Source: an uncultured Gammaproteobacteria bacterium
GTDB lineage: Bacteria > Patescibacteriota > Microgenomatia > CAYQLK01
Assembly (NCBI GenBank): GCA_964404855.1
Contig: CAYOLO010000001.1
Coordinates: 297,322 to 361,321, forward strand
Reading direction: 5' to 3'
Length of the DNA: 64,000 nt
Within the stretch, counting starts at the first letter, position 1; each line of letters opens with the position of its first letter. Made by a program: the position numbers and the translations under genes. The notes beneath the pieces are model-generated. The model did no database searches. It was given only the letters and a program-made list of their open reading frames with translations, and was not told where the DNA came from. Positions 17,092-53,360 of this stretch are shown here, one piece after another.

Positions 17092-20000
17092 CTAGTTGAG
17101 GCTAAGCTCTTGGTTGATGATTAGATAGCTGACGGTCAGGTCTACTGTTTGAACTTGGGCAAGTTTAACCCTAAACCCTATACCAGCTAGTTTTTCTGTG
17201 ACGCTAACGGCAACTGGTAGATCTCCTTCGACTGTGAGCAGAATGATTGAGTTCTCGGTCACAGCAGTTGTTTCGACGTCAAATAGGTCGTATCCACTGG
17301 TTAAGAGTGTGTTGCCGGCGATGCGGTTGAGCGGATTTTCCTCGTCACCTTTAACTGTAATAGTACTGACTGTGAGGTCTTTAGTTTCGAGCTTGGCTAT
17401 TTTGACCAAACCTTCGGTGTCAATTACAAGTGATCCTCTGAGTAGGTCAAGTCCGCCAGAAGTTGGTAAGTTTTGTAGGTATAGAGTGCCTGATAGCACA
17501 TTTAATTGGCTGCCGAGACCGTCTGCGGTGGTATCGAGGGTAAATATTCCGTCCTGACTTAAACTTCCAGCAATATTAGTGTTACTTAGTGAGACTGAAT
17601 TGAGGAATTCAACTTCGTCTTTGAAAGTTGCTTGTTGTTCGACTGTTAGATTAATAACTGTTAAATCTTGAGGTTCTTGGTTTTCAAGCTCAGCTGATTG
17701 ACTAGATTCTGGTTGCGCACTTTCTGAGGCGCCAAGTACGGCAGACGAAGAGGCGATAGCGTCGGTAATCATCTTATCTATTTCTTCCCTAGTAATCGGA
17801 CCTTGGGCTTCTACTTGTTGGTTATTAGGAGTAACTTCGGAGTTTTCTTCACCATCGATACTGCCGTTGATGCCAATTAGAAGTTTGAGATTTTCTTCAG
17901 ATAATGTTGTTTGTCCAATGGTTATGGAATCATTAGCAACGATGTTCGTAGCTTCAATAATATCTTGGATTTGAGTTATTTCTGAGAGTATTTCTTCTTC
18001 AGTGAATTCTGTTTCTTCGCTTGTGGAATAGTTTGGAGCTTCCCCTGGGACAAATCCTCGTCCGTCTTGTTTGTTGGCAACATTGCCCCATTTTTCGTGA
18101 TCAAAACGAGGCGCGGTAAGACGATATGAGATTTCACAGTTACAGTTGCCGAAGATAGTTAAACGATTATTGGCTGGATCTCTTTCGTACCAGACTTTGG
18201 CGCGGCTGTCGTTAGCACTAAGAAGTACGACTAAGTCCTTCATATTTTGCCCAAAATCGGTGATTCGGTAGAAAAGCCCTAGGTCGCTTGAAGTTTCAAG
18301 TTCTGGGAAGTTGATTTGATATGAGAAGTTGCCAGTTGAACCCTCTGGGCGAGTAAGATTGGCAACGCCAGTTGTTTCTTCTTTTTGACCAGTCATAGAA
18401 GCTACATAAGTAGCGTATTTGGTACCATCGATGAAATATGGCGGGTCGATTGTTCCAAAGTCAACTTTAAGAGTTCCGTCGCCAAAGTTGATTTCTCCGT
18501 TGGTTGGGTCGTTACTCTGGATTACTGATCCATTGGTAAGGGTAATTGTTGAGGCAACCGGTGACGATTCCAATACAAAATGACTGTCTTCAGTCGCGCT
18601 GTTATTATTGCGACCTCCGAGATAGGAAGCTGATGTGTCTCTGACCCATCCCCATGCAGAGCTTGTGGTGGTGGTACAACTAGCACCAACACCATCGTTT
18701 TGACCTGCAACTTGAAGGACATATTTGGAGCCTGCTTGGACTAAGACTGGGGTCGTTAAGACAAATCTGGCCCAAGTAACCGCGCTACCGATATTTAATG
18801 TTTGGTAAGGTCCAGCGAGTAGTGTTCCAGCGCCATCTGAACCGTTTTCGTCATATATACAAACTGAAGCTTCCTCGGTTGCGCCCGCCATACTTATTTT
18901 GGCTTGGACGGTAGATAGATAAATATCAGCGGCTGGAGTGAAGGATTGGGTTTTTACAGCTGTAGCTGAGTTAACTGTGGTTGAGTTGCTAAAGAATCCA
19001 TGGTTGGTGTTTTTTGAGGCCTCCATAGTGAATAGGTAATCAGTCGAGGCGCTGGCTTCTGAGCGACCGCCTGAGTAAATATCAGAAGCAGAAACCGCCC
19101 ATTGCCAAGCTGATGAGGTAGTGGTGGTACATCCTGCGCCGACACCTGTGTTTTGTAGGGCAATTTGAAGAACGTATTTATTATTTCCAAGTAGCGGTAC
19201 GGCTGTGTTAAATGAGAATCTAACATGGCTTATTGTTGATGAAATATTGAGTGTTTGATTAGACATGGCAATTAGTGTGCCTGGGGCATCAGAGTTGTTG
19301 TCATAAATACAAGCAACAGCTTCTTCTGTACCGTTAGTTGATAAAATTTTTGCAACCACAGCAGTAACAGACATTGGGGTGTCTGGGGTGAATGATTGAT
19401 ATTTGGCTGTAGTGTCACTAGTACCGCTGGTGGCAGAGTTGATGATTGCGACACCAGTACCAGAGATGTCTGCGTAAATAGCACCTGTTGCAGAGAATAT
19501 TTCGCCACCGTCTGAGTTGGCGGTATCAAGAATTCTAAGAAGGTTGTTTGTTCCGTCGCGGAAGTTGAATATGCCGTTGTTAGCAACATCAATATTAAGA
19601 GTAGAAGCAGTTGTTGTGATGTCTCCACCGTTAACTGCCACATCGCTAGCGGTTGTAATCAGACCAGCTGTAGAAATACTCCAGTTATCGTCCGTAATTG
19701 AAAGGTTGGTGGTGCTGGCTGAACCTATTGTAATTGTGTTAGCAACTGCGCCGGTTCCAATTTGCACAGTTTTGGCGTTTGTGGCGCCAGTGGCAATTTG
19801 CACTGTTGTTGCTCCAGTGCCAGAGCCAATCGCTACGGTGTTTGTACCACTAGATTGGCCTAAAGTTAATAATCCGGTTTGGGCTGTACCTCCAAAGGTC
19901 ATAGTGCCAGTTGTGGTGCTAGCGCCAACTGTATATGTGGTTCCTGCAACACCATCTAAAGTAAAGTTACCACTACCTGCTCTGAGGTTAAGTGCGTTAG

Positions 20001-22512
20001 CTCCAGATGTATTACCAATTGTGATTGTACCTGTGTAGGAGCTAGTTCCAAGGTTAATCGCGGTTGATCCTGATGTGTTAATGTCAAAAGTGCCGGTGGA
20101 GGTAACACCAGTAGCTCCAGTAATTGCACCAGCGCCTGTAATGTCAAGGGAAGCTGTGTTGAGGAAGTTTGATACAGTTCCTGATATTTCGATAGCGTCT
20201 GTTAGGGTGCCCGAGGTATTGGTAATCATGAGCGCGTTGCTTAAGTTGCTTGAAGCAGCATTGTTTTCAATAAAAATTCCGTTCGTAACAGTTTCTGGAG
20301 TTTTAAGGTTCTCTACCTTGAATAAGGTATCAAAAGCACCAGTGGTAGCTGTGTCGGCTTGGGTTATAAGCATTCCATTAAGTGTGCCAGTTGCGCCTGT
20401 TCCGCTTGGCGTAAGGGTATATGTGTAGCCCGTAGTTGTGGCATCTGTTGTTGGTGTAAAGTTTTGAGCCCAAGTGTAAGTTGCTTGGTTTAGGATAAGG
20501 TTGGCATCGAGATCAAGGGTGTCAGCAAAATCTACAAAGTCAAGAGAGTTGGACGAAGAAGTGGAGTTACAGTTGCCATAGGTTGGTTGGTTACCTGTGC
20601 CGTTGCTTTTAAGACAATCTCCAGATGTGGCGCTTGGGTTGACCTGGTTAAGTACACCACCAGAGGCAATAGTGATAACTGAGCCAACAGTGCTAAGCGA
20701 GGAGAAAGTAATTGTGCCAGAGGAGCTAAGTCCTGTGAATGTAGCTACGCCTGGACCTGTTACACTCCAGTTAGCATCAGAGATAGCAATGTTAGCACTG
20801 CCATTGCCAATGGTGGCTGTGCCTGAATATGAGCTTGTACCAATGTTGATAGCAGTTGAGCCTGATGTGTTGATGTCAAAAGTACCAGTGGAGGTAACAC
20901 CAGTAGCTCCAGTAATTGCACCAGCGCCTGTAATGTCAAGGGAAGCTGTGTTGAGGAAGTTTGATACAGTTCCTGATATTTCGATAGCGTCTGTTAGAGT
21001 TCCAGCTGTGTTGGTAATGTTAATACCATTACTGAGCGTACCTGAGGCTGCATTGTTTTCGATATAAAGCCCGTTTGTGGTTGTTTCTGGAGTTTTAAGG
21101 TTTTCAAGTTTTAGTAGAGAGTCAAAAACGCCTGTATTAGCATTGTCGGATTGAGATATCACAAAACCTTGAAGTGTGCCCGAAGAACCTGTACCTGTTG
21201 GATTGAGTGTGAGCGAGGCTGCGTTTATGGTTGCATCAGAAGTAGGAGTATTAGTGATTTGAATATTGGATCCTTCACCGTTGGTCACGATTAAGTCACC
21301 TGTGCCGTTCGGCGCAAGTGTTAGCGAACCATTGCTGTTAGTGCCAATTGTGGCTGCGCCGCTGAAAATTAGGTTGCCCGAAGAATCTAGAACAGGAACT
21401 TGATTAATATCTGGTGTTTGTGAAGGGAAATAACCAGCTAGAGCGTCGGCGTTAAGTGCATAAGCACTAGAAACTATTCTTTGCCTTGGGGTCATTTCTG
21501 AATCGGCACCGACAGTGACTCCTAGATACAAAGTAGCATTCTCACTAAATAGAGTGCTAGGAATTGTTGTATCTGCAGCACCTGTGTCTCCAAGTAGGAC
21601 TGAAAAAATACCATTCGAGTCTGGTGTAATATTCCAAGTTTTTGATGTCCATTGAGCACTCCCACCTGATGACACAGTGTAGATTTTGAACACAAAGTCG
21701 GTAGCAGAAGTTATTGGAGAACCTGAAGCGTTAGTAATTCGACCTTGGAAAGAAAGAATTCTTGGAGGAGCAACAGCGGCAAGAACTTGACCTTCAAGTG
21801 GGGATGGTTGTGGCGTTTCAAGACTGATTTGGGTTCGGTTGGGGGTAAGCATGAATGTTGATCCAGAGATAACTAGCGCCATTGTGGCGAGCCCAAGGAA
21901 TATTTTTTGTGAGAAGTGTAATTTGGATTTTTTGGTTAGGGTTTTTTGTGGTAAGCCGAGGAGATCTGTTAGTGGCTTGTAAGAAAAACCCCATTTTTTA
22001 AGTTTTTCAAGCTCTTGAGAGAGAGCAAGAAGGCTGATTGCAGCTCCGACAGTCTGCGTTTCGGAGCTGCTGACAGCTTGATTTGCATTGTTTGCCTCAA
22101 TGCTGGCTGTGTTTGTAACTATCTGCTCTGTGGAGTGGTTTGTCAGGTGTGAAAACCCGTTTGCCTCAAACCATTTTGAGAGAGATTTTAGAAATTTGAT
22201 TTGTCGAGAAAGTGTGGATTTAGCAAACTTGTTCTGAACATCCTTGTGGTAGAGCTCGATTGTTTCAATATCGAGTTTGGGATAGTTGGTTCGATTTTGT
22301 TTAATCGACCAAATGACGAATTTCTTTAAATCGGAGCGGTAATTACTATAAGTTGATTTGGATGTTGACGAGAGGGCGAGTGTTTCGAAGTAACCTTTGG
22401 AAGCGTTGAGTATACCAAGAGCAAACTCTTTTTTGGAGTTTTGGACAGGTTTATTTATAGTGCTGGCAGGTATCTTAAGGCCTGAGGCAAACAGGACTTT
22501 TTTCATTGTCAA
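17092..22512 (-). CDS. giant (1806 aa) type-II membrane-anchored surface protein with an N-terminal cytoplasmic integrase-SAM-like domain, one TM, and a huge Thr/Ser/Gly-rich beta-rich ectodomain with internal tandem-duplicated modules
   Basis: N-terminus KSTYSNYRSDLKKFVIWS...IELYH...FAKSTLSRQIKFLKSLSKWF matches the phage-integrase N-terminal SAM-like pattern. TM IFLGLATMALVISGSTFML. Two ~230-aa near-identical modules and two ~150-aa QSFTP...CTTTTSSAW(Q/G)W domains. Confidence 0.75.
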   Translation of the reverse strand: MTMKKVLFASGLKIPASTINKPVQNSKKEFALGILNASKGYFETLALSSTSKSTYSNYRSDLKKFVIWSIKQNRTNYPKLDIETIELYHKDVQNKFAKSTLSRQIKFLKSLSKWFEANGFSHLTNHSTEQIVTNTASIEANNANQAVSSSETQTVGAAISLLALSQELEKLKKWGFSYKPLTDLLGLPQKTLTKKSKLHFSQKIFLGLATMALVISGSTFMLTPNRTQISLETPQPSPLEGQVLAAVAPPRILSFQGRITNASGSPITSATDFVFKIYTVSSGGSAQWTSKTWNITPDSNGIFSVLLGDTGAADTTIPSTLFSENATLYLGVTVGADSEMTPRQRIVSSAYALNADALAGYFPSQTPDINQVPVLDSSGNLIFSGAATIGTNSNGSLTLAPNGTGDLIVTNGEGSNIQITNTPTSDATINAASLTLNPTGTGSSGTLQGFVISQSDNANTGVFDSLLKLENLKTPETTTNGLYIENNAASGTLSNGINITNTAGTLTDAIEISGTVSNFLNTASLDITGAGAITGATGVTSTGTFDINTSGSTAINIGTSSYSGTATIGNGSANIAISDANWSVTGPGVATFTGLSSSGTITFSSLSTVGSVITIASGGVLNQVNPSATSGDCLKSNGTGNQPTYGNCNSTSSSNSLDFVDFADTLDLDANLILNQATYTWAQNFTPTTDATTTGYTYTLTPSGTGATGTLNGMLITQADTATTGAFDTLFKVENLKTPETVTNGIFIENNAASSNLSNALMITNTSGTLTDAIEISGTVSNFLNTASLDITGAGAITGATGVTSTGTFDINTSGSTAINLGTSSYTGTITIGNTSGANALNLRAGSGNFTLDGVAGTTYTVGASTTTGTMTFGGTAQTGLLTLGQSSGTNTVAIGSGTGATTVQIATGATNAKTVQIGTGAVANTITIGSASTTNLSITDDNWSISTAGLITTASDVAVNGGDITTTASTLNIDVANNGIFNFRDGTNNLLRILDTANSDGGEIFSATGAIYADISGTGVAIINSATSGTSDTTAKYQSFTPDTPMSVTAVVAKILSTNGTEEAVACIYDNNSDAPGTLIAMSNQTLNISSTISHVRFSFNTAVPLLGNNKYVLQIALQNTGVGAGCTTTTSSAWQWAVSASDIYSGGRSEASASTDYLFTMEASKNTNHGFFSNSTTVNSATAVKTQSFTPAADIYLSTVQAKISMAGATEEASVCIYDENGSDGAGTLLAGPYQTLNIGSAVTWARFVLTTPVLVQAGSKYVLQVAGQNDGVGASCTTTTSSAWGWVRDTSASYLGGRNNNSATEDSHFVLESSPVASTITLTNGSVIQSNDPTNGEINFGDGTLKVDFGTIDPPYFIDGTKYATYVASMTGQKEETTGVANLTRPEGSTGNFSYQINFPELETSSDLGLFYRITDFGQNMKDLVVLLSANDSRAKVWYERDPANNRLTIFGNCNCEISYRLTAPRFDHEKWGNVANKQDGRGFVPGEAPNYSTSEETEFTEEEILSEITQIQDIIEATNIVANDSITIGQTTLSEENLKLLIGINGSIDGEENSEVTPNNQQVEAQGPITREEIDKMITDAIASSSAVLGASESAQPESSQSAELENQEPQDLTVINLTVEQQATFKDEVEFLNSVSLSNTNIAGSLSQDGIFTLDTTADGLGSQLNVLSGTLYLQNLPTSGGLDLLRGSLVIDTEGLVKIAKLETKDLTVSTITVKGDEENPLNRIAGNTLLTSGYDLFDVETTAVTENSIILLTVEGDLPVAVSVTEKLAGIGFRVKLAQVQTVDLTVSYLIINQELSLN
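19700..21280 (-). repeat. tandem duplication of a ~790-bp coding module inside the giant gene (identical core 20078-20215 = 20870-21007)
   Basis: The antisense track ORFs 20075.. and 20597.. share the identical 45-aa stretch LMSKVPVEVTPVAPVIAPAPVMSREAVLRKFDTVPDISIASVRVP at a 792-bp offset. Confidence 0.6.
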
Positions 22513-22897: not shown

Positions 22898-23428
22898 TTA
22901 ATCCTTATTCTTGAACGCTTTGAATTTGGTAATACCAAGATAGATTACTGTTAATGAAAGAATGCCGATAATTATTCCAGCTAAGAAGTGATTATTTTGA
23001 ATCGCGAATAATAATTTTAGTGGGGCGTTAAGAATAGTGGTTGGAGATTCTGGATTAAGTAATCGATAAAGAGCGATTTGTTGTTTTTCTAATTCGTCTA
23101 TTTTGTCAATTATTTCATCTTTTTCGGGAGGGGTTAGTGGTTTGCCTTTAGTAGGAGTAGGTATAGCAGTTGGAGTCGGTGTAGGGGTGCTGGTGGGTCC
23201 AGGAGTAGGTGTAGATGTTGGTCCTGGGGTTGGTGTTGAAGTGGTGCCTGGAACTGGTGTAGGGGTTGGTGTCGGTGTCGGTGTTGGGGTTGCTGTTGGA
23301 CAAATATTTACACAAGCTGTGGTGTTGACGTCTTCAGCGCGAACTTCTGTTTGAATAATAAACAGTAGTACTAGTGATAGTAGTGGAATGGTTAGTTTGG
23401 GCAGCATTTGGGCAATATTATACTGCAT
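22898..23428 (-). CDS. small secreted Thr/Pro-rich protein with a C-terminal TM anchor
   Basis: Signal peptide, CVNIC, TPTPTPTPTP linker, coiled DEIIDKIDELEKQQ, and a C-terminal TM + KFKAFKNKD. Confidence 0.5.
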   Translation of the reverse strand: MQYNIAQMLPKLTIPLLSLVLLFIIQTEVRAEDVNTTACVNICPTATPTPTPTPTPTPVPGTTSTPTPGPTSTPTPGPTSTPTPTPTAIPTPTKGKPLTPPEKDEIIDKIDELEKQQIALYRLLNPESPTTILNAPLKLLFAIQNNHFLAGIIIGILSLTVIYLGITKFKAFKNKD

Positions 23429-23467
23429 AGATTTTGACCATATTTAACCAAAATAAATGTTGTAAGG

Positions 23468-23500
23468 TCAAAAAAAAACACTCCCCGAGTGCAGGAGTGC
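23468..23500 (-). terminator. rho-independent terminator for the minus-strand gene 23597..24652
   Basis: Read on the minus strand: cactcc(tgcactcgg)ggagtg followed by T9. Confidence 0.65.
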
Positions 23501-23508
23501 TTTAAGAT

Positions 23509-23546
23509 GAACCGAACCGAACCGAACCGAACCGAACCGAACCGAG
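23509..23546. repeat. (GAACC)7 pentanucleotide microsatellite
   Basis: gaaccgaaccgaaccgaaccgaaccgaaccgaacc, lying between the stop of gene 23597..24652 and its terminator. Confidence 0.9.
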
Positions 23547-23596
23547 CTAAAAATATTGAACAAGTTGCAAGTGCGAGGCAGTAGATATTTAAGATG

Positions 23597-24652
23597 TTAC
23601 TTCTTCTTTTGAATCTCTGCAATAATCTTGCGGCGGTATGCTCTCAGTGCGAGAACTATCAGCATAACGACTACCGCGATTGCAAGTCCAGCGACGGATA
23701 GAGCCTTCCAAGGGATTACCCAGAACGAAGTGCTTGAGCTTACAATGTCATTTTTGAGTCCGTAGCTAGCAATAACTTCTACGGTGTATTTTCCGAAACC
23801 AAATTCTGGATTGAATTTGCCAACGAAACTTCTGACTGCTCCTGGAAGAACCGAAAGGGCAGAGTTGTTAAATGATTCTCTAGAAACTTCGTTGCCGAAC
23901 ATGTTACGGACTATAATGTCTCCAGCAGGGGTAAGATGGACAGAACCTGAGTTTTCAAGTCTGGCTTCGATACTTACTGGTCCAGATTCGTACATAGACT
24001 TGTCTGTTTTGATGCTTGAGATAGAGAGAGCCTCTTCAACATCTCCAGAAACTCTAACTAAAACGACTGGTCCGGTTCTGGTAATAACTTTCGAACCAGT
24101 TCCAGCTGCTTTTTCAGGAGGAGTGGTGGTTATAAAAACAGCGCCAAAATGTCCGCCTGGTTCAGCGTCTTTTGGAACAGCGATTGAGAAACTAAAAGCT
24201 TCAGAAGATTTTGGATCAATGGTAACTTGAGTTTTTGAAGCTCTGATCCAACTAGCTAATGCGTATTGATTATTAAGTGGTGATTCAGAAAATACAGCAT
24301 CACCGTTTTCGTTAATTGTTTCAATATCAGCGAGAGTTACGTAGTATGTAAGCGGGTCGTCTGATTTGTTGTCGATAACAACTTGGTGAGAACTGGTTTG
24401 ACCAGGGTCTAGGTTGAGATCAAACTTGATTGGCGAGAATGTGATGTTGGTTTCAGCAACCTGCTGTTGAGCGGCTTGAGGTTGTGCTGAAGGAGTTGAT
24501 GCACTTGGTACTCCAATTGGTGTTAATGAATTATTTTCGGATTTGAGTGGTTGAGAAGAAGGGTTGGTTTGAGCTAGTACTGGTGAGGTAGCAAGCGAAA
24601 CTATAAAAGCGGACGAAGCCAATGTAATGGCTAGTTTTTTGGGCAGATTCAT
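23597..24652 (-). CDS. cell-surface protein: signal peptide, Q/P-rich linker, beta-rich domain, C-terminal TM anchor + basic tail (CscA/DUF916-like architecture, tentative)
   Basis: MNLPKKLAITLASSAFIVSLATSPVLA signal. C-terminus SVAGLAIAVVVMLIVLALRAYRRK. Confidence 0.6.
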   Translation of the reverse strand: MNLPKKLAITLASSAFIVSLATSPVLAQTNPSSQPLKSENNSLTPIGVPSASTPSAQPQAAQQQVAETNITFSPIKFDLNLDPGQTSSHQVVIDNKSDDPLTYYVTLADIETINENGDAVFSESPLNNQYALASWIRASKTQVTIDPKSSEAFSFSIAVPKDAEPGGHFGAVFITTTPPEKAAGTGSKVITRTGPVVLVRVSGDVEEALSISSIKTDKSMYESGPVSIEARLENSGSVHLTPAGDIIVRNMFGNEVSRESFNNSALSVLPGAVRSFVGKFNPEFGFGKYTVEVIASYGLKNDIVSSSTSFWVIPWKALSVAGLAIAVVVMLIVLALRAYRRKIIAEIQKKK

Positions 24653-24688
24653 ATTTGTTTTTTTAATTATATATATAAAAATTACAAA

Positions 24689-25744
24689 TTAAAAGATACC
24701 ATAACTAGTATAAGTTAGGGTATTCGTATAGGTACCGGCAGGTTGTGTACCAGTGATTTCTAGCGAGTAGCCAATATCTGCAGTTCCACCAGCTCCTGTG
24801 CCGTTTACAGGTCCACCAGCGTCAAATATTTTGTAAGAAGTTGTACCAGTGAATCCTCCAAATATTGTTCCAGTTGTGTCAAAAGCAGAACCTGATACCA
24901 CATCGGTAGAGGTAAAGCCAAAATGACCCCCTGAAGTTGGTGTGGACCAAGTTGTTTCTGAGTTAAGAGCAGGCGGGGTACCATCATCGAATGAGTTAAT
25001 AGTGTCAGCAGTACCGTTAGTTAGGTTAGCTGACTGTCTAACTGAAGTATTGTGACCGTTAGATGCGTTAGTAGAGACCGTTAGTGTGTGGCAGTGGGTG
25101 TATTGAGTAGCAGTTGATAATGCAACTCCGTTATTGAAGTTAATTGAAGAGGCAGTAGTCCCACTTGATTCACAAGTGTCTCCACCGGAACCAACTGTGC
25201 CAGAGCTTTTGGCGGCTATTGTGAAGTCGTATGTTGCGTTGATTGTGGCGGTAACAGTAACTTGATCTTCTGTTAAGACATCAACGGCAACATTGGAAGA
25301 ATCTTCGTAAGTTCCATCGTTGTTGGCGTCTGTTTCGACTGTGATTACATAAGTAGCAGCCGAAGGGTTAGTGCTAGCTGGAACAACAAAGGTAACAGTA
25401 TCACCGGCATCACAGCTTGAAACAGAGGTGATTGTGCTAGCAAAAGGGCTAGCGCCATTGAATATACCAGCAGTTCCTGCACAAGACCCGTTACCGGTGA
25501 ATGTTGGAGTTAGTGAACCAAACGAAAAGTCGGCAGTAGTTAGTCTGACTCTAGAGGTTGAGCCGAGAGTAGAAGCTAGAGTAAAGGTAAAAGTATGAGT
25601 TGAAGATACGCCAGTTTTAAGCCTGGACATATTGTCAGAAACATCGACTAGTGCGGCAGCTCTGGCAGTCTTGGGCGGGACAAGTGTAAGTAGAATGCTA
25701 ACTATTGGCAGAATAGCAAGAAGTGATAGCTTAGAAATTTTCAT
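24689..25744 (-). CDS. secreted beta-rich surface protein, paralogue 1 of 3 (C-terminal ...GTYTNTLTYTSYGIF)
   Basis: Signal peptide with ARAAA cleavage. Ser/Thr/Gly-rich. Shares a C-terminal domain with the next two genes and with the C-terminus of the 2556-aa protein. Confidence 0.7.
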   Translation of the reverse strand: MKISKLSLLAILPIVSILLTLVPPKTARAAALVDVSDNMSRLKTGVSSTHTFTFTLASTLGSTSRVRLTTADFSFGSLTPTFTGNGSCAGTAGIFNGASPFASTITSVSSCDAGDTVTFVVPASTNPSAATYVITVETDANNDGTYEDSSNVAVDVLTEDQVTVTATINATYDFTIAAKSSGTVGSGGDTCESSGTTASSINFNNGVALSTATQYTHCHTLTVSTNASNGHNTSVRQSANLTNGTADTINSFDDGTPPALNSETTWSTPTSGGHFGFTSTDVVSGSAFDTTGTIFGGFTGTTSYKIFDAGGPVNGTGAGGTADIGYSLEITGTQPAGTYTNTLTYTSYGIF

Positions 25745-25747
25745 GGT

Positions 25748-26809
25748 CTAAAAAATACCGTAGCTAGTGTAGGTGAGAGTGTTGGTGTAAGTACCAGGCT
25801 CCTGTGTACCAAGGATTTCTAGAGAGTAACCGACATTACTAGCAAAGGCGCTAACAGCAGCTGATTCGTCCTGAATCTTGTAGGCAGTGGTACCAGTGAA
25901 CCCGGCAAAGCTTGTGCCGACGGATGAGAAAGATGACCCACCCCAAGTATCACTGGAAGCAAAGCCGAAATGACCTGGTGAGGTAGGTGTTGACCAAGTT
26001 GTTTCTGAGCCAACTGAAGGTGGTGTACCATCATCAAACGAGTTGATAGTGTCTGAGGTACCGTTGGTTAGGTTAGCAGATTGGGCAACAAAGCTTCTAA
26101 AACCAGCAGTAGCGTTAGTGGAGACTGTTAAAGTATGACAGTGAGTGTATTGGGTTGAAGTCGAAAGATTAACACCGTTGTTGAAGTTAATTGAAGAAGC
26201 AGTCGTTCCACTCGATTCGCAAGTGTCACCACCAGAACCAACAGTACCAGATGTTTTGGCAGTAACAGCAAAGTCAAAAGTAGCACCAATTGAAGCTGAA
26301 ACAGTAACTTGATCCTCAGTTAAGATGTCAACGGCAACATTAGACGAGTCTCCGTCTGTGTAGGTGCCGTCGTTGTTAGGGTCAGTTTCAATAACGAATA
26401 CATAAGTAGCAGCTGCAGGGTTGGAAATAGCTGATGTTGTAAGCGTGACCACATCACCTGAACCACAACCAGAAACAGAAGTAAGGTTGGTAACATTTGA
26501 TGACCAAGCGCCGGTTGTAGCTGAACAGCCACCTGTAGCAGAGAAACCTGGGGTACCGGTGTAGGAGAAGCTTGCTTGGGTGATTCTTATTTTAGATGAG
26601 CTACCAAGAGTAGTGGATAAAGTGAATGTCCAAGTGTGGGTGGCAGAAACACCAGTTTTTTGACGGGAAAGGGCATTGCTAACACTCGTAAGTGAGGCTG
26701 CGGCTGTTTGTTTGGGGGTAAGCGTAATTAAAGTGGTCGAAAGAACAACTGCAATAAGGCAGAGTACCGATAGTTTTTTAACGGTTTTGGTTGTTTGGCG
26801 CAGTCGCAT
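25748..26809 (-). CDS. secreted beta-rich surface protein, paralogue 2 of 3
   Basis: Signal peptide. The C-terminal ~198 aa are identical to paralogue 3. Confidence 0.7.
   Translation of the reverse strand: MRLRQTTKTVKKLSVLCLIAVVLSTTLITLTPKQTAAASLTSVSNALSRQKTGVSATHTWTFTLSTTLGSSSKIRITQASFSYTGTPGFSATGGCSATTGAWSSNVTNLTSVSGCGSGDVVTLTTSAISNPAAATYVFVIETDPNNDGTYTDGDSSNVAVDILTEDQVTVSASIGATFDFAVTAKTSGTVGSGGDTCESSGTTASSINFNNGVNLSTSTQYTHCHTLTVSTNATAGFRSFVAQSANLTNGTSDTINSFDDGTPPSVGSETTWSTPTSPGHFGFASSDTWGGSSFSSVGTSFAGFTGTTAYKIQDESAAVSAFASNVGYSLEILGTQEPGTYTNTLTYTSYGIF
25770..26346. repeat. ~580-bp perfect direct repeat, copy A (3' half of paralogue 2)
   Basis: Identical embedded track ORFs 25819..26037 and 26973..27191, and identical flanking sequence. 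The offset is 1154 bp. Confidence 0.8.
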
Positions 26810-26901
26810 TCTTAATATAAAAAGATGTTATCCCAATGATTACAATTAGCTACTGGTTTGTCAATAACTGGAATTGGTTAATTTAACTTAACAATAAAAC
26901 T

Positions 26902-27981
26902 CTAAAAAATTCCGTAACTGGTGTAGGTAAGAGTGTTGGTGTAAGTACCAGGCTCCTGTGTACCAAGGATTTCTAGAGAGTAACCGACATTACTAGCAAA
27001 GGCGCTAACAGCAGCTGATTCGTCCTGAATCTTGTAGGCAGTGGTACCAGTGAACCCGGCAAAGCTTGTGCCGACGGATGAGAAAGATGACCCACCCCAA
27101 GTATCACTGGAAGCAAAGCCGAAATGACCTGGTGAGGTAGGTGTTGACCAAGTTGTTTCTGAGCCAACTGAAGGTGGTGTACCATCATCAAACGAGTTGA
27201 TAGTGTCTGAGGTACCGTTGGTTAGGTTAGCAGATTGGGCAACAAAGCTTCTAAAACCAGCAGTAGCGTTAGTGGAGACTGTTAAAGTATGACAGTGAGT
27301 GTATTGGGTTGAAGTCGAAAGATTAACACCGTTGTTGAAGTTAATTGAAGAAGCAGTCGTTCCACTCGATTCGCAAGTGTCACCACCAGAACCAACAGTA
27401 CCAGATGTTTTGGCAGTAACAGCAAAGTCAAAAGTAGCACCAATTGAAGCTGAAACAGTAACTTGATCTTCAGTTAAGATGTCAACGGCAACATTAGACG
27501 AGTCTTCGTATGTTCCATCGTTGTTAGCGTCGGTTTCTACAACAATGACATATGTGTTTGCGGCAGGATTTGTGCTAGCTGGAACAGTAAAAGTAACGGT
27601 GTCACCAGAATCACAGCTTGTAACAGAGGTTATGGAGCTAACAAAAGGGCTAGAACCGTTAAAGACACCAGCTGTTCCAGCACAAGAGTTGTTACCAGTA
27701 AATGTTGGAGTTAGTGAACCAAACGAAAAGCTAGAGGTGGTTAGTTTGACTCTAGAAGTGCCACCTAGAGTAGAGGCTAAAGTAAAAGTAAAAGTGTGAG
27801 TAGATGAAATACCAGTTTTTTGTCTGGACATTGCGTCAGTTACATTGACAAGGGAAGCAGCATTTACGGTTTTGCCACCGAACATGACGAAGTTAGGAAG
27901 ACCTATTAAAAGGGCAAGTACGAAAAGGAGCAGTTTTTTGAACTTATTCGTGTGAACTGACATTATTGTTATTATCATCAC
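26902..27981 (-). CDS. secreted beta-rich surface protein, paralogue 3 of 3 (mosaic: N-terminus like paralogue 1, C-terminus identical to paralogue 2)
   Basis: N-terminal half LVNVTDAMSRQKTGISSTHTFTFTLASTLGGTSRVKLTT... is ~85% identical to paralogue 1. The C-terminal half is 100% identical to paralogue 2. Confidence 0.7.
   Translation of the reverse strand: MMIITIMSVHTNKFKKLLLFVLALLIGLPNFVMFGGKTVNAASLVNVTDAMSRQKTGISSTHTFTFTLASTLGGTSRVKLTTSSFSFGSLTPTFTGNNSCAGTAGVFNGSSPFVSSITSVTSCDSGDTVTFTVPASTNPAANTYVIVVETDANNDGTYEDSSNVAVDILTEDQVTVSASIGATFDFAVTAKTSGTVGSGGDTCESSGTTASSINFNNGVNLSTSTQYTHCHTLTVSTNATAGFRSFVAQSANLTNGTSDTINSFDDGTPPSVGSETTWSTPTSPGHFGFASSDTWGGSSFSSVGTSFAGFTGTTAYKIQDESAAVSAFASNVGYSLEILGTQEPGTYTNTLTYTSYGIF
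26924..27500. repeat. ~580-bp perfect direct repeat, copy B (3' half of paralogue 3)
   Basis: See copy A. Confidence 0.8.
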
Positions 27982-27992
27982 AAAAAATATCT

Positions 27993-28925
27993 CTAGTTGT
28001 CAATTGGCTTTTTGGACTTTTTGAAGACTTTGATGCTAAGAATAATTGCAGTTAGTAAAAGTACTATTGTAATTAGTGGATAAGCGATATATCCAAGTGA
28101 GGGAATAATATAAATTGTGAATTCTTGAGATGTGTACTTAACACCATTGTCCCCAGTGACGGTGGAGCTTACCTTGTAGATGCCTGGAGTGGTGTCGGTT
28201 ATGTAGATTGCTGGTGGAATATTTTTTTCGAGAGTTGTTGTCATTTGTCTGACAGCTCCCGCTAAGATGTTTTGGGGAATAATCGGGATTATTTTTTGGC
28301 TTTTGCTATCAATTATCGAAGTCAAAACTATGGAACCTTCGATAGTTTGAAATTTATTTAGATTGTTTTGAACAGTGAGAGAAAGAGTAGATTTACCGAT
28401 TTGCTGAATTTTTTCTCCCGTTAAGGATATTTTGATATCACCTTCGATTTTTTTCTTGTCAAAAAGTGAAAGGATGATGTTTGAAGCTACAGACGGTTGG
28501 ATAGTAGCGGAGCTTTTTTTGGAATCAGGTTCAGGTGAAATTGGAGAGGCTAAAATTGCAAAATAAAAATCTTGTTCTTCAATTGTTTCAGGAACATTGA
28601 TGCGAAACCCGATTGTTTGATCTTCAGCACTGGTTGCTTTGGTAATTGGCGGGAAAAACTGCACCCATTTTGTAACAGGGTAGTTGGGGTTATCGGGTAA
28701 GAGTTTGATAAGGCCTTGAGTGCCATCGGCTTCAAATTGGCGAATGCTGAATTGATAAGTACTACCGGTATCGGCGGAAAACTTAAAAGTGCCATTAATG
28801 CCATTACCTGGTTTGCCTTTTATTTCGAAATGAGAGGGTTCAATCGCGACGGTCGAAGCATTAACTACATTATATATGGAGAAAAAAATTATTAAGCTAA
28901 AAAGCGGGGCAAGGACTTTTTTCAT
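27993..28925 (-). CDS. cell-surface protein: signal peptide, two beta-rich domains, C-terminal TM anchor + KKSKK tail (CscA/DUF916-DUF3324-like architecture, tentative)
   Basis: MKKVLAPLFSLIIFFSIYNVVNA signal. C-terminus YPLITIVLLLTAIILSIKVFKKSKK. Confidence 0.6.
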   Translation of the reverse strand: MKKVLAPLFSLIIFFSIYNVVNASTVAIEPSHFEIKGKPGNGINGTFKFSADTGSTYQFSIRQFEADGTQGLIKLLPDNPNYPVTKWVQFFPPITKATSAEDQTIGFRINVPETIEEQDFYFAILASPISPEPDSKKSSATIQPSVASNIILSLFDKKKIEGDIKISLTGEKIQQIGKSTLSLTVQNNLNKFQTIEGSIVLTSIIDSKSQKIIPIIPQNILAGAVRQMTTTLEKNIPPAIYITDTTPGIYKVSSTVTGDNGVKYTSQEFTIYIIPSLGYIAYPLITIVLLLTAIILSIKVFKKSKKPIDN

Positions 28926-28940
28926 TGGTTGTATTTTAGC

Positions 28941-31900
28941 TTAGTAGGTTCCGGTTAGGATATAGGTGACTTTTGTTTCATAATTACCAGCTTCTTGAGC
29001 AGAACTCACATTGACTTTGTAGGTAACAGTTATTTCACTGTCATTAGTTGTGCCGACATTGGACATAACGGCGACTGGGCTTTCTGCAAAAGCTAAGTCT
29101 GCAAAATGGCGGTAGTTACTGGTAAAGGCTGCATCAGTGCCAGTGACATTGGCTAAAGTGTAACCGAAACCATAAGTGGTGCTTGATGACCAAGCGCCAG
29201 CTGAGGTATGAGTAATATTGCTTGCGTCGCCAAGAACATCAGGGATATAGAATCCGGCGTAGTTAATATTGGCAAGCCTTGTTACTTCTTGAGCGGTTAC
29301 TTGATAGCCGCCTGGGGCATCAGAGACGACTTGTAGATTGTGATTGTTGGTAGCTGGAGTACCTGGAGTAAGAGTACCAAAGGCGATTGTGGTTGAAGAA
29401 ATTGTTAGCTCGAGTCGATTGGAGCCAATATTCCAGTATTGAAAACCAGAACCAAGGTCGTAGTTGGTTGATTCTCCTGGTCCAGCTGCTAGTACGCCAC
29501 CTGTATCTGTAAGTGTGTAATTAGTGGACGATTTTCTGTCGCCGAAACTACCAAATGCTCCATCCATTTCGAAGTTGGTTGAGACTAGTTTGCCTGAACC
29601 AGCAGGTGGTGGGTCAGCGGTGGTGTTGGCAGTGTCACTTCCTGTATCAGTACCATCGTTGGCATCTGTGTAGCTGAGGGTAATAACATCATCTAGGACC
29701 ATTTCGATGTTATTGTTCGAGGTTGTGTATGTTCCCCACGCTGAAGTAATACTGCCTCGGAAAATAGCTGTGGAGTTGCCGGTTTCGGTTAAAGTTTTGG
29801 TTTCGGAATCGCCAGTGGTAGTGGTAATGCTTACAGATAGTGTTTCGGCGCTGCCGCCGTTAAGGTTAACGGAAACATCAGTAACAGTCATATAAATAGT
29901 GTCGCCTTGAGTGAAGTTGTTGTCCTCGGAATATCCGCTGTCTGTTAATAGAATGGTATTTGAGTCGTAGTTGAAGTCGCCAGCGTTGGTCATAAGTCCG
30001 CCGTTATTACATACAGTGCCGGTGACATCAAGAGAGAAGCTGTCTAGATCGTAAGTACCGGTTATGATACAGAAATTTTCGTTGACTGTGGTGTTAACTT
30101 GTTGAGTGAAAGTATCAGTGTTGCCATCGTCAGAGTCGATTGTGAGGTTGCGCCATGTGTAGTTTGGAATATTGTAGACATCAGCAACTGTGTCGTTATC
30201 GCCAACAAAAATTACATAAGATCCGACCGAAAGAGTAGGTGTGGTTGGCAGTTCGTTACCTTCCATTTGTAGTGTATCGGCTACAGTAAATGTTGAACCA
30301 CAGTTGAAGTCAAAGGAGTTGAGGAAGAATGTACCGTCGGTGATTGTACAGGTTGAGCCAGTAGTGAAGTCTGTTGCCATTTGAGCAGTACCTGAGGATT
30401 TGTTGACGGTAAATACGCCTGACATTGTTCCGGCGTTTTGAGTGATGTTTTGGGTTGTGGCTGTACCACCCATGGTAAGTGTAAGATTGGCACCACCAAA
30501 GGTGTCGGTCGTACTCATTGAGAAATCACCTTGGACGGTCATGGTGTAGGCAGATCCTGGGTTTGAAAAAGCTCCGTCTGTGCGCGTGAAGTCATCGGTA
30601 ATTGTACAGGTGCTGGCGAGTGTTAGTGTGGAGCCTGCGTGGGTCATATTTTGTTCAACTGCACCCGTAATTGTGCCGCCTTCACAGTCAAGCGTGGAAT
30701 CAGTGTCTACGCCACCGTCTTCAAAAACCAATGTATTGCCTGCAACAACCAGAGTGCCACCAGAATCTTTAAGCACACTACCTCGAGTCGTAATTGTGGT
30801 TCCAGTCATTGAACCATTAACCGTAATTGAGCCGTATGTCGTGACACTGGCAACCATTGTAATTACACAACTTGCACTTAAGGTAAAGTCAGCTCCTTGA
30901 ATGGTTTTGGCAATATTGTGGGTACCAGCAAGGGTAGTAGAACAAGTAAGAGTAGAATCGTCGGTAGTGTCGGCGCCATCAAAAGTTAAGGTTTTGCCAC
31001 TAAGGTTGAATGTTGTTCCAGATGTATGGGTATAGTCTTTTTCAAGGGTAATTATTGTTCCAGAGTAGGTCATCGTAGCGGAGGCTCCATTGGTAAGACT
31101 ACCTCCATTGCCAGAAGTGGAATCCAGATTAAAAGTACTTCCAGAAATATTAGTTGTACCATTGTTGACATAGTTACCTGTCATTGAGATTGTTGTTACA
31201 GCAACAATACAACTGGTGTTAATTGTGACGGTTGCTCCGCCAGTTTTGTTAAAAGCTAAAGTTCCACCTAGGGTTCCACAGATAACTGTACTGTTGTCAG
31301 AACTACTTGACCCGTCGAGGGTAACAGTAATGCCTGTAAGGTTAAAAGTTCCGCTTTGGGTAAAATCACCCTCAATTGTCATGGCAGTTCCAGAGTAGGT
31401 AATTGTTGCACCACCATTATTGGTTAAATCTCCTTCGCCGCCAGTAAGATTATCGAGATTAAAAGTTGTACCACCATTATTAATCGTGCCGTTATTGATA
31501 ATATTTCCTGTCATCGAGATACCTGAACCTGGGGAGGCAACGGTACATCCGCTACCAATGGTGATGTCACCGTCACCGGTTTTGTTAAAACCAATACTGC
31601 CGCCAATTGTGCCTGAACAGGTGACAGTTGAGTCGTCGGAGGTTGTACTGCCGTCTAATGAAATTGTTCCGCCGTTATGAGTGTATGTGCCGTCATTAGT
31701 GAAGTTTTTGGCTACAGTCATTGCGACAGTTGCAGAATTTTGATAAGTCGCACTGGTGTTAATCAAAAAGTTTCCGTTTACATCGACTGTTGGATCGTTG
31801 GTGTCGGCGTTGACGGTTACTGAGTTAGTGTCATCGCCAATGGTTAAGTTGTTAGCTATGGTTATTGTTTGTGACGCTCCTGAGCCAAGAGTGTATGTGG

Positions 31901-36611: not shown

Positions 36612-36699
36612 TATTTAATTGTATAGAAAGTTGAGCACAAATTGAACAGCTAAAGTAAGACGCTATTATATATGGTTATCTACGTGATGATATTTGAGC

Positions 36700-42632: not shown

Positions 42633-43820
42633 ATGGGCAAATTTTGGCTTGTGATATTGATTTTGTTACTGATGGCAATGTTTAGGTCAACAGTTTTGGT
42701 TGAACAAAAGTATAGGCACAGTGATTTGGTTATCGATGAGGAGTTGAGAGTAAATAATTACCCAGAATTTTCAAAAAATGTTCAATATTTTGATACTGAC
42801 TATGGAAGGTTGGTAACCGACAGATGGCCAAAGTATGAAAAGGGTGAGATTTTGTTGGTAAAAGGAGACTATTTGGCGGAAAAAGAGGCGATTTGGTTTC
42901 CTGAGGTTAGTTCTAGAGGTAAACCTACAGGAATACAGGGACTATTAAACTCAATAAGAAGTGGTATTTCACATAAAATCAATCATTATTTTGACCATCA
43001 ATCATCGGAATTAATATTGGGAATGCTTATTGGTCAGAATGATTTGACGCCTGATTTATCAGAACAACTTAAGCGTTCAGGTGTTATTCATGTTGTGGTT
43101 GTTTCTGGGCAGAATTTGACAATGATTTTTGCTTTCCTTGCGCTTTGGGGTAGATACACTAGGAGGAAAGTTTTTTTAATAATTTCAATAACCATATTAA
43201 GTGTATATGTGTTTTTGGTAGGAATGGATCCACCTGTGGTTAGAGCATATTTAATGATCTTGGTTGTTGTTTTGGCGGAATTATTAGGTAGAAAATATTC
43301 AAGTGTTCAGGCTTTGGTTCTGACTGCTGGAGTGATGGTGGCGTACAACCCTTTGTATATCGGGGAGGTGTCGTTCAGGTTATCTTTTTTGGCTTCGCTT
43401 GGGGTATTAATAGGAATAAAAGTAACTAGCTTGCTAAATACGGGCCAAAAAGGCTTTTTAAAGTATTTGGTGGAGGTGTATATCACAAGTTTTTTTGCGT
43501 GGCTTATGACTGCGCCAGTGATAATTATAAGCTTTGGATCATTGAGCGTAGTTGCGCCAATAGTAAACTTAGCTGTGTTGTGGTTAGTTCCAATAATTAT
43601 GGTTGGTGGAACAATATTTGTGTTAGTGCCTGATTTTTTTAGCAGTTTTTTCAGTTATTTTTTGCAGATTCTGGTAAATGGTTTTTTGGTTGTAGTAGCT
43701 TGGTTTGCAAAAATTGATATAGATATTTATGAAGCTAACAGTAGTATAAGTTTATATATTGTTATTTTTAGTTATATTTTGATACTCACTTTAATTAAAT
43801 TGTTTTTAAAAATTAAATGA
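42633..43820 (+). CDS. comEC: ComEC/Rec2 competence membrane channel domain protein
   Basis: Competence-domain motif SGVIHVVVVSGQNL and multiple TM helices. Confidence 0.7.
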   Translation: MGKFWLVILILLLMAMFRSTVLVEQKYRHSDLVIDEELRVNNYPEFSKNVQYFDTDYGRLVTDRWPKYEKGEILLVKGDYLAEKEAIWFPEVSSRGKPTGIQGLLNSIRSGISHKINHYFDHQSSELILGMLIGQNDLTPDLSEQLKRSGVIHVVVVSGQNLTMIFAFLALWGRYTRRKVFLIISITILSVYVFLVGMDPPVVRAYLMILVVVLAELLGRKYSSVQALVLTAGVMVAYNPLYIGEVSFRLSFLASLGVLIGIKVTSLLNTGQKGFLKYLVEVYITSFFAWLMTAPVIIISFGSLSVVAPIVNLAVLWLVPIIMVGGTIFVLVPDFFSSFFSYFLQILVNGFLVVVAWFAKIDIDIYEANSSISLYIVIFSYILILTLIKLFLKIK

Positions 43821-49469: not shown

Positions 49470-49542
49470 GGGCCGGTAGCTCAGTTGGTAGAGCATCGCA
49501 TTTGCAATGCGAGGGTCAGGAGTTCGAGTCTCCTTCGGTCCA
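49470..49542 (+). tRNA. tRNA-Ala (anticodon UGC), leader of the rRNA unit
   Basis: gggccgg...anticodon loop ttTGCaa...T-arm aggag-ttcgagt-ctcct. G3:U70 pair. Confidence 0.8.
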
Positions 49543-49726
49543 CTGTTTAGACTTTTGAACGGGTATTTTAAAATTAAAATTCCCGTATTTGGGTCTAACC
49601 AAAACAAAAAATTAGGCTTGAACTTTAAAAACTGAATAGAAAATATTTGTCCAAAAATATTTTTGACGAGAAAAACTTTTACAGAAAAGAGAAAAAATTA
49701 GTTCTTTATCTGCGAACAAAAAAGAT

Positions 49727-52622
<2,896 letters not shown>

Positions 52623-52836
52623 GAGTTTTCTTGTTTTTTAAAACAAGATATTTCCAGTCTTTTTTATTCGCAAAAAGAATTTTTCGTTCTTAAGTGTTTA
52701 AAAGGCAAATTAAGTTTTGTGATAAATTTCTTATCTTTAACAATTTATTGTTAAAGGCAGAAATGATTTGCGAAGCAAACATTTCTATTCAGTTTTTAGG
52801 TGTTCAAGCTTTTTTTGTGCTTGAAAGATTACTATT

Positions 52837-53217: not shown

Positions 53218-53243
53218 CATTAAGAGTAAATGAAGCTAAAATT

Positions 53244-53360
53244 CTCGAACGGTTGTTGAAGCGGTTTGGTCCCACCTGATCCCATCCCGAACTCAGAAGT
53301 GAAACGAGCCAGCGGTGACAATAGTTATTGCGAAAGCGATTATGAAGATAGCTCGCAGCC
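53244..53360 (+). rRNA. rrf: 5S ribosomal RNA
   Basis: Conserved core ggtcccacctgatcccatcccgaactcagaagtgaaacg. The ends are approximate. Confidence 0.6.

Follow-up and report, generated by a model that had tools for sequence, protein, structure and literature searches.

An orphan tyrosine-recombinase core-binding domain ahead of the membrane anchor of a giant Patescibacteria surface protein

Tyrosine recombinases such as XerC/XerD, lambda Int and Cre carry an N-terminal core-binding (CB), or SAM-like, domain, and among the closest systems to the protein described here are the catalytically inactive CB-domain DNA binders SPbeta MrpR (PDB 8a0a) and phi3T SroF (PDB 9rd5). The bitopic one-component regulators ToxR, CadC and TcpP begin with a cytoplasmic DNA-binding domain, cross the membrane by a single transmembrane (TM) helix and end in an extracytoplasmic domain. 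RsgI anti-sigma factors of cellulolytic clostridia place a cytoplasmic N-terminal regulatory module and one TM helix before variable extracellular carbohydrate-binding or enzyme-like modules. As for the WxL/Csc cell-surface-complex clusters of Gram-positive bacteria, we know of no DNA-binding giant protein that forms part of them.

The stretch of DNA analysed here (the window, 64,000 nt) holds a gene whose product has the CB domain in common with the tyrosine recombinases. Unlike them, its family has neither the catalytic domain nor the catalytic residues; a linker, a TM helix and a giant ectodomain come after the CB domain, which often occurs in tandem. The likeness to ToxR, CadC and TcpP is one of layout, regulation by this family being putative; the window protein has a CB domain, and some relatives a MerR-type helix-turn-helix (HTH), instead of the OmpR-type winged helix, and the outer domain is 5–30 times larger. 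The resemblance to RsgI extends to the outer modules, which among homologues include CBM_4_9, a pectate-lyase-like domain and peptidases, whereas the head is a DNA-binding fold rather than a sigma-factor binder, and no RsgI_N anti-sigma domain was detected in the query (Pfam, E<=1). The neighbouring genes match the WxL/Csc pattern, including a WxLIP_PGBD-like protein; unlike those clusters, Pfam gave no WxL-domain match at E<=1 in the C-terminal domain that the neighbours have in common.

The open reading frame exists as the initial annotation listed it (17092..22512, minus strand), with a mechanical start at TTG 22512; the likelier one, the ATG at 22506, yields a product that begins MKKVLF. 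An identical 1,804-aa protein with the same start called (P0350) is encoded on a 660,813-bp NCBI contig. Among codons 1–120, those that changed relative to a 92%-identical orthologue comprise 28 synonymous and 5 non-synonymous cases, and relative to a 96%-identical orthologue 8 and 0, a pattern indicating that the N-terminal codons are translated and under purifying selection. Because these codons change mostly synonymously, the start does not lie downstream of the head, and a misplaced start codon or fused reading frame was rejected on the same synonymous excess. This is a single genuine gene for a predicted type II (N-in/C-out) membrane protein, from an ultra-small, Curtissbacteria-like bacterium of the Patescibacteria (CPR). 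Within the cluster of proteins at >=90% identity, one member bears the name Candidatus Curtissbacteria. Scans with Tandem Repeats Finder and for promoters and terminators gave nothing exceeding background. The features are as follows.

17092..22506, minus strand: whole gene, bitopic surface protein of 1,804 aa, ATG at 22506, codons 1–120 constrained
22147..22434, minus strand: cytoplasmic SAM-like/CB domain of tyrosine-recombinase type, aa ~25–120
21916..22146, minus strand: low-complexity cytoplasmic linker, aa 121–197, pLDDT below 50, fast-evolving
21847..21915, minus strand: single TM helix (signal-anchor), aa ~198–220, from hydropathy, AlphaFold2 and flank charges
21232..21786, minus strand: family-defining extracytoplasmic "base" domain, aa ~241–425, with the motif VLAAxxPPRILSFQGR
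20551..21198, minus strand: large repeat module, copy 1, aa 437–652, holding the exact 110-nt tract 20888–20997
19699..20406, minus strand: large repeat module, copy 2, aa 701–936, holding the exact 110-nt tract 20096–20205
18967..19386, minus strand: CTTTTSSAW domain 1, ~140 aa, aa 1041–1180, cysteines 1066 and 1126
18514..18936, minus strand: CTTTTSSAW domain 2, ~140 aa, aa 1191–1331, cysteines 1216 and 1277
18007..18498, minus strand: conserved distal module, aa ~1337–1500, common to about 13 distant family members (BLAST coverage map)
17095..18006, minus strand: acidic Glu/Ile/Ser-rich spacer (aa 1501–1640) and C-terminal domain (aa 1641–1804)
22898..38988, minus strand: upstream co-directional surface-protein cluster, which recurs beside distant family members

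The first ~110 residues had been likened to an integrase SAM-like domain, and sequence profiles, the family profile compared with the PDB and an AlphaFold2 model agree in placing residues ~25–120 in the tyrosine-recombinase CB fold, with four helices (25–45, 50–69, 80–90 and 96–115) and a net charge of +9. The Pfam Phage_int_SAM_1 match (residues 38–119, E 2.6e-4) reaches 21.6 bits, just under the cut-off of 22.3, while the N-termini of ten out of ten sampled relatives lie above it at 30–81 bits. The TIGR XerD/XerC models match the head at E about 1e-5 through their N-termini only, with the XerD model aligned at positions 3–83 of 290 and XerC/XerD coverage confined to the first ~85 positions. 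Foldseek returned zero matches for the head at E<=0.001, and a word-indexed homology search limited to the N-terminal 269 aa returned none, the homologues having come from the full-length query. The catalytic domain PF00589 had no match in the query at E<=1 (Pfam) and is absent from the domain listings of all 76 homologues. The head is thus an orphan tyrosine-recombinase CB domain without a catalytic domain; a real integrase was rejected, as Pfam and NCBIfam matches end with the N-domain and the linker and TM helix come next. Relatives are publicly annotated as "site-specific integrase/XerD", which is a misannotation because both the catalytic domain and the catalytic residues are absent.

The linker is predicted to be disordered except for a helix at 155–170, its changed codons number 19 synonymous and 17 non-synonymous, and a Lys-rich stretch precedes the TM helix. 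That there is a single TM helix, as proposed earlier, was confirmed by hydropathy, with one strong hydrophobic segment in the whole protein at aa ~202–220, and by an AlphaFold2 helix at 198–220. The predicted N-in/C-out topology fits the charge distribution (net +15 for aa 1–200, −90 for aa 221–1804) and the placement of the cysteines, all eight of which lie in the ectodomain, in pairs. By prediction, the protein therefore has the ToxR-like layout of a cytoplasmic N-terminal DNA-binding domain, a single TM helix and an extracytoplasmic C-terminal domain, with no OmpR-type winged-helix domain. A C-terminal LPXTG sorting signal and a second TM helix are both absent; the sole LPxTG-like string, LPTSG at 1680, has no hydrophobic tail after it. 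The signature of an LPXTG-anchored adhesin (cleavable signal peptide plus LPXTG tail) does not apply, since the TM helix comes only after a 200-aa folded head.

Right after the TM helix follows the base domain, which carries xSFQGR...EMTPRQ motifs (local HMM E 1.1e-70 at aa 241–424) and has a beta-sandwich core at ~249–346. The ectodomain had been described as beta-rich, and this holds for aa 232–425, the one part tested, where AlphaFold2 gives a confident beta-sandwich. A profile search at E<=1e-10 placed 38,261 representative clusters in the base-domain family. Among 214 members examined, 169 have one to three SAM-like domains right before the TM helix and base domain, 80 have tandem heads, and 34 have a signal peptide or anchor only, so that the cytoplasmic head is dispensable for the basic role of the ectodomain. 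The family is very large, unnamed and CPR, and the SAM-like–TM–base layout is its rule, usually with one or two SAM-like domains ahead of the TM helix. A fusion of this kind is unusual for bacteria in general, as had been suggested, and it is commonplace within this CPR family. A full-text literature search found no account of a SAM-like–TM–giant protein or of the family. In the supplement of a Southlakia Tn-seq study, PF02899 occurs among the matches listed only in a normal XerC, and that work consequently offers no genetic data on the family. Ectodomain modules vary among homologues and include M23, CBM_4_9, Peptidase_S74/G2, pectate-lyase-like and LVIVD domains.

Three relatives (P0010, P0029 and P0136) have a MerR/HTH_17 domain at the pre-TM position and no SAM-like head there. 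The MerR-type P0029 is 41% identical to the SAM-type P0008 across about 1,070 aa, P0136 is 52% identical to P0020, and P0010 (MerR), P0027 (SAM) and the window gene occupy the same leuS/comEA...ATP-synthase locus. From these alignments we infer that two unrelated DNA-binding folds are interchangeable before the TM helix. In addition, the SAM-like domains of the family carry on average a net charge of +5.2 and are positive in 96% of cases, while the base domains average −7.7. Given this interchange of folds and the consistently basic charge of the SAM-like domains, DNA binding on the inner side of the membrane is the most likely role of the head. Against DNA binding stand the weak scores of the query itself (below the Pfam cut-off, and nil in Foldseek at E<=0.001) and the weak DNA binding of recombinase CB domains in isolation. 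A protein that is simply an adhesin or envelope fibre, with a helical head that binds no nucleic acid and mediates protein interaction, assembly or retention in the cytoplasm, would agree with an ectodomain that makes up the bulk of the protein, with the headless relatives and with a gene placed within a conserved WxLIP-like surface cluster; we regard it as rather improbable, as it poorly explains the consistently basic head and the swap to a MerR-type HTH in relatives that otherwise align over almost their whole length, including a positional orthologue.

The window gene stands at the end of this conserved leuS-adjacent cluster, and the same setting is found in relatives. The cluster comprises a 176-aa anchored protein, the 351-aa WxLIP_PGBD-like protein (bearing a signal peptide and anchored C-terminally), three paralogues of 351–359 aa, a 310-aa protein, a second giant reading frame (2,556 aa) and a Wzy_C/TPR membrane protein; several of the neighbouring paralogues share a ~200-aa C-terminal domain with a terminal (L/V)TY motif. 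The comEA and comEC genes repeatedly adjoin the locus, and no shared operator-like inverted repeat was found upstream of five family genes, which may count against signalling through DNA binding. Both observations would suit a structural tether, in which the head holds chromosomal or incoming DNA, with no sequence-specific regulation involved, and anchors the nucleoid or the DNA-uptake machinery under the fibre or host-contact site. The inference of DNA binding from head swap and basic charge applies equally to such a tether, and tandem heads would increase its avidity. Nevertheless, the comEA–comEC–leuS adjacency is perhaps ordinary conserved synteny and MerR/excisionase-type HTH domains are normally sequence-specific, and we consider a tether unlikely.

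The junction between the TM helix and the base domain bears on a further alternative, secretion-coupled release, in which the SAM–TM segment is an oversized leader, the ectodomain is cleaved at VLAA↓xxPPR, and intramembrane proteolysis frees the membrane stub as a soluble DNA-binding factor reporting fibre export. An Ala-Ala motif does occur 8–10 residues ahead of xSFQG in relatives with long and with short N-termini alike, the latter showing a signal-peptidase-like site, LAA↓TGINKQINFQGK, and the predicted disorder of the linker would be compatible with such processing. In the long-N-terminus members, however, the motif lies about 12–20 residues past the TM helix, farther than signal peptidase I is known to reach, and a crude pattern picks it up in just 53% of the long-N-terminus and 67% of the short-N-terminus members; release of this kind is accordingly given a low probability.

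Beyond the base domain, the ectodomain continues for ~1,400 acidic, Thr/Gly/Ser/Asn-rich residues with two duplicated module pairs. The large modules had been called near-identical, which the alignment contradicts (62% identity, 133/215), while the identical internal stretch is real and longer than the 45 aa first given, at 53 aa (502–554 = 766–818). At the nucleotide level, the two exact 110-nt tracts lie within a 300-nt repeat of 84% identity with a spacing of 792 nt. We estimate the chance of 110 straight matches at roughly 75–85% identity as about 1e-8 or less, for which reason the run is read as a conversion tract and not as chance. The tract also differs in position and length from orthologue to orthologue, which points to ongoing gene conversion between the modules; intragenic conversion of this kind would keep the duplicated modules alike. 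The repeats had also been thought to drive length variation. Orthologues at about 73% identity do have deletions of 56 aa and 98 aa (at aa 539–594 and 836–933), whereas no copy-number change at the large repeat occurs across nine variants of the >=90% identity cluster, so the idea is weakly supported, and strain copy-number variation of the 792-nt-spaced repeat was rejected. As described earlier, the two smaller domains share CTTTTSSAW (at 1126 and 1277), and they align at 46% identity.

A phmmer search of the ectodomain against PDB sequences found nothing, and PHROGs gave no matches. Some distant homologues contain the tail-fibre-type domains Peptidase_S74 (PF13884) and G2, which, together with the public integrase labels, might suggest a mobile-element remnant, namely a degraded integrase or phage tail-fibre gene joined on through mis-assembly or a wrong start. 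The same uninterrupted architecture nevertheless recurs in more than 150 independent representative proteins, the head is under purifying selection, and the chromosomal position next to housekeeping genes is conserved. Relatives were also absent from IMG/VR in two pattern scans of limited sensitivity (one using the query, the other an 8-sequence alignment). The recurrent architecture, constrained head and conserved locus contradict an artefact, which we hold to be highly improbable. A phage tail-fibre or tailspike identity was likewise rejected, as the query has no Pfam chaperone or PHROG match and lies among chromosomal housekeeping genes.

The explanation we prefer, held tentatively and at somewhat less than even confidence, is a membrane-tethered DNA-binding surface fibre with an orphan CB head that works by transmembrane one-component signalling, ToxR/CadC-like in topology and RsgI-like in its variable extracellular binding modules. 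The giant ectodomain would bind a ligand on the host cell or envelope, upon which the cytoplasmic head would engage DNA differently, through clustering, pulling or proteolytic release, and gene expression would change. Besides the headless relatives, two further observations count against it. Ectodomains of 1,000–6,000 aa dwarf those of known bitopic sensors and suit a structural fibre or adhesin better, and a His-rich juxtamembrane motif (HQKxxHHIKxTRPxWYxRYH), kept in most relatives, is missing from the query.

CPR/Patescibacteria probably account for much of bacterial diversity and probably live on the surface of host cells, so that they would have to recognize hosts and control gene expression with few classical regulators. 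Because tens of thousands of clusters share the base domain and most of the examined members have a DNA-binding-type head, the family offers a specific candidate, open to testing, for contact sensing or nucleoid anchoring. The "site-specific integrase/XerD" labels, a systematic misannotation now corrected, inflate mobile-element counts in CPR genomes, and the family adds a second case in which a recombinase CB domain has been reused outside recombination. The window protein may form a physical connection between the cell surface and DNA. It is conceivable, although we would not presume it, that Patescibacteria widely possess transmembrane couplers in which a giant host-contact fibre is wired directly to the chromosome via recombinase-derived CB or excisionase/MerR-type heads; these could act through signalling of the ToxR kind, as mechanical tethers, or through release of the head coupled to export. 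If so, such couplers would be a main route from surface contact to genome-level responses in minimal, episymbiotic cells.

The open reading frame that the initial annotation had described is present at 17092..22512 on the minus strand, where the mechanical call starts at TTG, while an ATG at 22506, two codons past the TTG, opens a protein of 1,804 aa (MKKVLFASGL...), and this ATG is also the start of the orthologues in gene callers' output. An identical protein (P0350, 1,804/1,804 residues) is encoded on a 660,813-bp NCBI contig. In codons 1-120, the changed codons are 28 synonymous and 5 non-synonymous against L002, an orthologous locus of 92% identity, and 8 and 0 against L001 (96%), a synonymous excess that rules out a start downstream of the head, the weak point foreseen in the initial annotation; linker codons 121-200 are relaxed (19 synonymous, 17 non-synonymous). 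There is one hydrophobic helix, at aa ~198-220, in agreement with the single transmembrane (TM) segment proposed earlier, and the overall description of the gene was correct in substance.

The SAM-like core-binding (CB) N-terminus, previously recognized by pattern, is upheld by profile searches and structure prediction. Residues 38-114 match Pfam Phage_int_SAM_1 at 21.6 bits (E 2.6e-4), just short of the 22.3-bit cut-off; the match to the TIGR XerD and XerC models is confined to their first ~85 positions (E about 1e-5), and among PDB sequences, a profile built on 17 N-termini from the family (A3) finds XerD (1a0p, E 1e-4), XerA and several integrase N-domains deposited on their own. The AlphaFold2 model of aa 1-240 contains four helices (25-45, 50-69, 80-90 and 96-115; pLDDT about 90), a disordered linker and the TM segment as helix 198-220; with the head model, Foldseek placed recombinase N-domains among its high ranks, with no match at E<=0.001. 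Moreover, no catalytic recombinase domain was found in the protein by the Pfam and TIGR XerD/XerC searches, and PF00589 is absent from the precomputed domains of 76/76 homologues. Judged by its sequence, the protein carries a predicted recombinase DNA-binding head without being a recombinase, and it is excluded from the tyrosine recombinases since the catalytic domain was tested for and is absent. The top PDB sequence match of the family N-terminal profile (E 3.7e-9) is the 401-residue chain 14 of 9i5v, deposited as 'Ribosome-associated translation inhibitor RaiA', whose first ~115 residues resemble a XerC/D-type N-terminus; either the chain is a fusion or its label is anomalous. The window also holds a large serine recombinase (Resolvase and Recombinase domains; 57224-58834, plus strand), so the SAM-like head stands outside the genome's actual set of recombinases; the 3' end of this gene overlaps a tRNA (58816-58888, minus strand), which may mark an integrated element unrelated to the giant gene.

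A full-length search returned the 76 relatives, of 1,000-3,100 aa, about 40 of them with precomputed SAM-like Pfam matches; the few named ones belong to Woykebacteria, Levybacteria, Collierbacteria, Uhrbacteria and 'Patescibacteria group', and one member of the cluster of at least 90% identity to the query is named Candidatus Curtissbacteria. The closest genome records with the gene, L001 and L002 (92-96% identity), carry the title 'uncultured Gammaproteobacteria bacterium' and are probably mislabelled MAGs, because gene content and named relatives point to Patescibacteria (Curtissbacteria-like). By BLAST coverage, nearly all relatives have in common aa ~241-425 and not the head; this segment is the base domain, immediately past the TM helix, with the motifs VLAAxxPPRILSFQGR...EMTPRQRI. 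When 214 family proteins were classified by what lies N-terminal to the TM helix and base domain, the fusion of head, TM helix and surface protein proved to be the norm: one SAM-like domain precedes the helix in 88, two in 80 and three in 1, while 34 have a signal peptide or anchor only and 11 another N-terminal extension. All ten sampled family N-termini (10/10) pass the PF02899 Pfam cut-off, at 30-81 bits. The outer modules of homologues include M23, CBM_4_9, Peptidase_S74/G2, pectate-lyase-like and LVIVD domains.

In three of the 11 other N-termini (P0010, P0029 and P0136), one or two MerR/HTH_17 (excisionase-type) HTH domains replace the SAM-like domain. The remainder of these proteins matches SAM-type members (P0029 and P0008, 41% identity over about 1,070 aa; P0136 and P0020, 52% identity spanning juxtamembrane motif, TM helix, base domain and C-terminus), so that two unrelated DNA-binding folds are interchangeable at the pre-TM position. 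In addition, P0010 (MerR) and P0027 (SAM) occupy the same locus, N_methyl-NDK-M16-argS-(comEC)-comEA-x-leuS, giant gene, ... ATP synthase. SAM-like domains have a mean net charge of +5.2 and 96% are positive (query head +9), base domains average -7.7 and the query ectodomain has -90; all eight cysteines of the query (8/8) lie in the ectodomain, as four pairs. From the fold swap, the basic heads against acidic outer parts and the ectodomain-only cysteines, we infer that the head binds nucleic acid on the cytoplasmic side; a head without any DNA binding seems improbable. On the cytoplasmic side of the TM helix, SAM-type and MerR-type relatives share a His-rich juxtamembrane motif, HQKxxHHIKxTRPxWYxRYH (P0008 aa ~150-172, P0029 aa ~148-170), which could bind metal or lie at the membrane surface; the window protein has ELEKLKKWGFSYKP in its place.

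The duplication of the two large modules stands (aa 437-652 and 701-936), as does a fully identical stretch, of 53 aa, the longest shared by the modules, although 'near-identical' overstated an overall identity of 62%. At the DNA level, 110 nt are exact (20888-20997 = 20096-20205) within a 300-nt repeat of 84% identity. The second pair (aa 1041-1180 and 1191-1331, 46% identity) has CTTTTSSAW in both copies, as reported before. The longest identical inter-module stretch is 65 aa in the homologue P0001, at the same place as in the query, and 33 aa in P0003, elsewhere in the module; P0002 has none in the modules, its longest internal repeat being 11 aa in the CTTTTSSAW pair. Because the identical tract differs between lineages, the sequences bear the apparent signature of recurrent intragenic gene conversion. 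The suggestion that repeats drive length variation is weakly supported: orthologues of about 73% identity have deletions of 56 aa (539-594) and 98 aa (836-933), but the copy number in aa 437-936 is unchanged among nine variants of the cluster of at least 90% identity, whose only indels are deletions of 15 aa at aa 1133 and 3 aa at aa 1409. Indels are occasional, and a rapidly expanding or contracting array is rejected.

The gene is the last of a co-directional surface cluster that diverges from leuS:
22898-38988, minus strand, surface cluster
39720-42092, plus strand, leuS
42633-44641, plus strand, comEC
plus strand of the window, argS and M16 peptidase

From leuS, the order is a Wzy_C/TPR membrane protein, a 2,556-aa giant ORF, proteins of 310 (small, anchored), 359, 353 and 351 aa, a further 351-aa protein that is WxLIP_PGBD-like (E 1.9e-11, signal peptide, C-terminal anchor), a 176-aa anchored protein and the SAM-TM giant. 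The cluster resembles Gram-positive WxL/Csc cell-surface-complex loci. Homologues of these neighbours adjoin distant family members at L004 and L006 (WxLIP-like match E 3e-56), and the leuS-adjacent layout at L008 is alike by gene order and size. With this neighbourhood, the giant gene belongs to the chromosome as a conserved part of a surface-protein cluster; it is no mobile element. An artefact or phage remnant is highly implausible, being contradicted by selection on the head, the conserved context and the lack of relatives of the giant protein in two pattern scans of IMG/VR and of matches in PHROG.

The 351-, 353- and 359-aa proteins (24689-27981, minus strand) are tandem paralogues, mutually 63-82% identical, and represent a recent local amplification inside the cluster. 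They share a ~200-aa C-terminal domain ending ...AGxYxxx(L/V)TYxxxG(T/I)(F/Y) with the second giant ORF (28941-36611, minus strand, aa 2344-2556) and with small proteins of other genomes (L004:16137-16823 and L006:7206-7982); possibly it is a WxL-type domain for wall binding that has diverged, and the Pfam scan gave no WxL match at E<=1. P0013, a giant member of the family, is followed immediately by a bAvd/23S_rRNA_IVP-family gene (L006:18999-19382); bAvd is the accessory protein of diversity-generating retroelements, which may therefore have some of the family as their targets. A 902-aa protein (8850-11558, plus strand) carries a sortase domain towards its C-terminus (aa 710-843); an LPXTG sorting signal is missing from the giant protein, which is neither an LPXTG adhesin nor a phage tail fibre. 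A tRNA, 23S rRNA and 5S rRNA lie together at 49470-53364 (plus strand) with no 16S rRNA in the 64-kb window, so the rRNA operon is unlinked; ORFs 51232-51591 and 51796-52233, inside the 23S gene, are spurious.

Architecture, predicted topology, family membership, domain swap and conserved context are thus established, and for function a signalling model is tentatively favoured, by analogy and at somewhat less than even odds. The head would bind DNA at the membrane in a ToxR/CadC-like arrangement, and host or envelope ligands bound by the ectodomain would alter the state of the head and, through it, gene expression; the fold differs from that of ToxR, and any likeness to RsgI is limited to the variable outer modules of homologues. 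Against this model, no operator-like motif common to the upstream regions of five family loci was found, CB domains on their own are weak DNA binders, the ectodomain far exceeds the usual size for a sensor and 34/214 relatives have no head at all. A head serving as a non-specific tether to the nucleoid or for DNA uptake is considered unlikely, and slightly more doubtful is its release by cleavage at an Ala-rich motif, whose conservation is a weak lead.

No description of the SAM-like-TM-giant architecture was found in the literature, and among the entries listed in the supplementary gene list of Southlakia, a genetically tractable member of Patescibacteria, the sole protein with PF02899 is an ordinary XerC. 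The base-domain profile, run on 1.84 billion representative proteins, matched 64,149 representative clusters at E<=1e-3, 38,261 at E<=1e-10 and 1,870 at E<=1e-30, and several of the 76 relatives are annotated 'site-specific integrase/XerD'; the family is common in sequence databases and systematically mislabelled.
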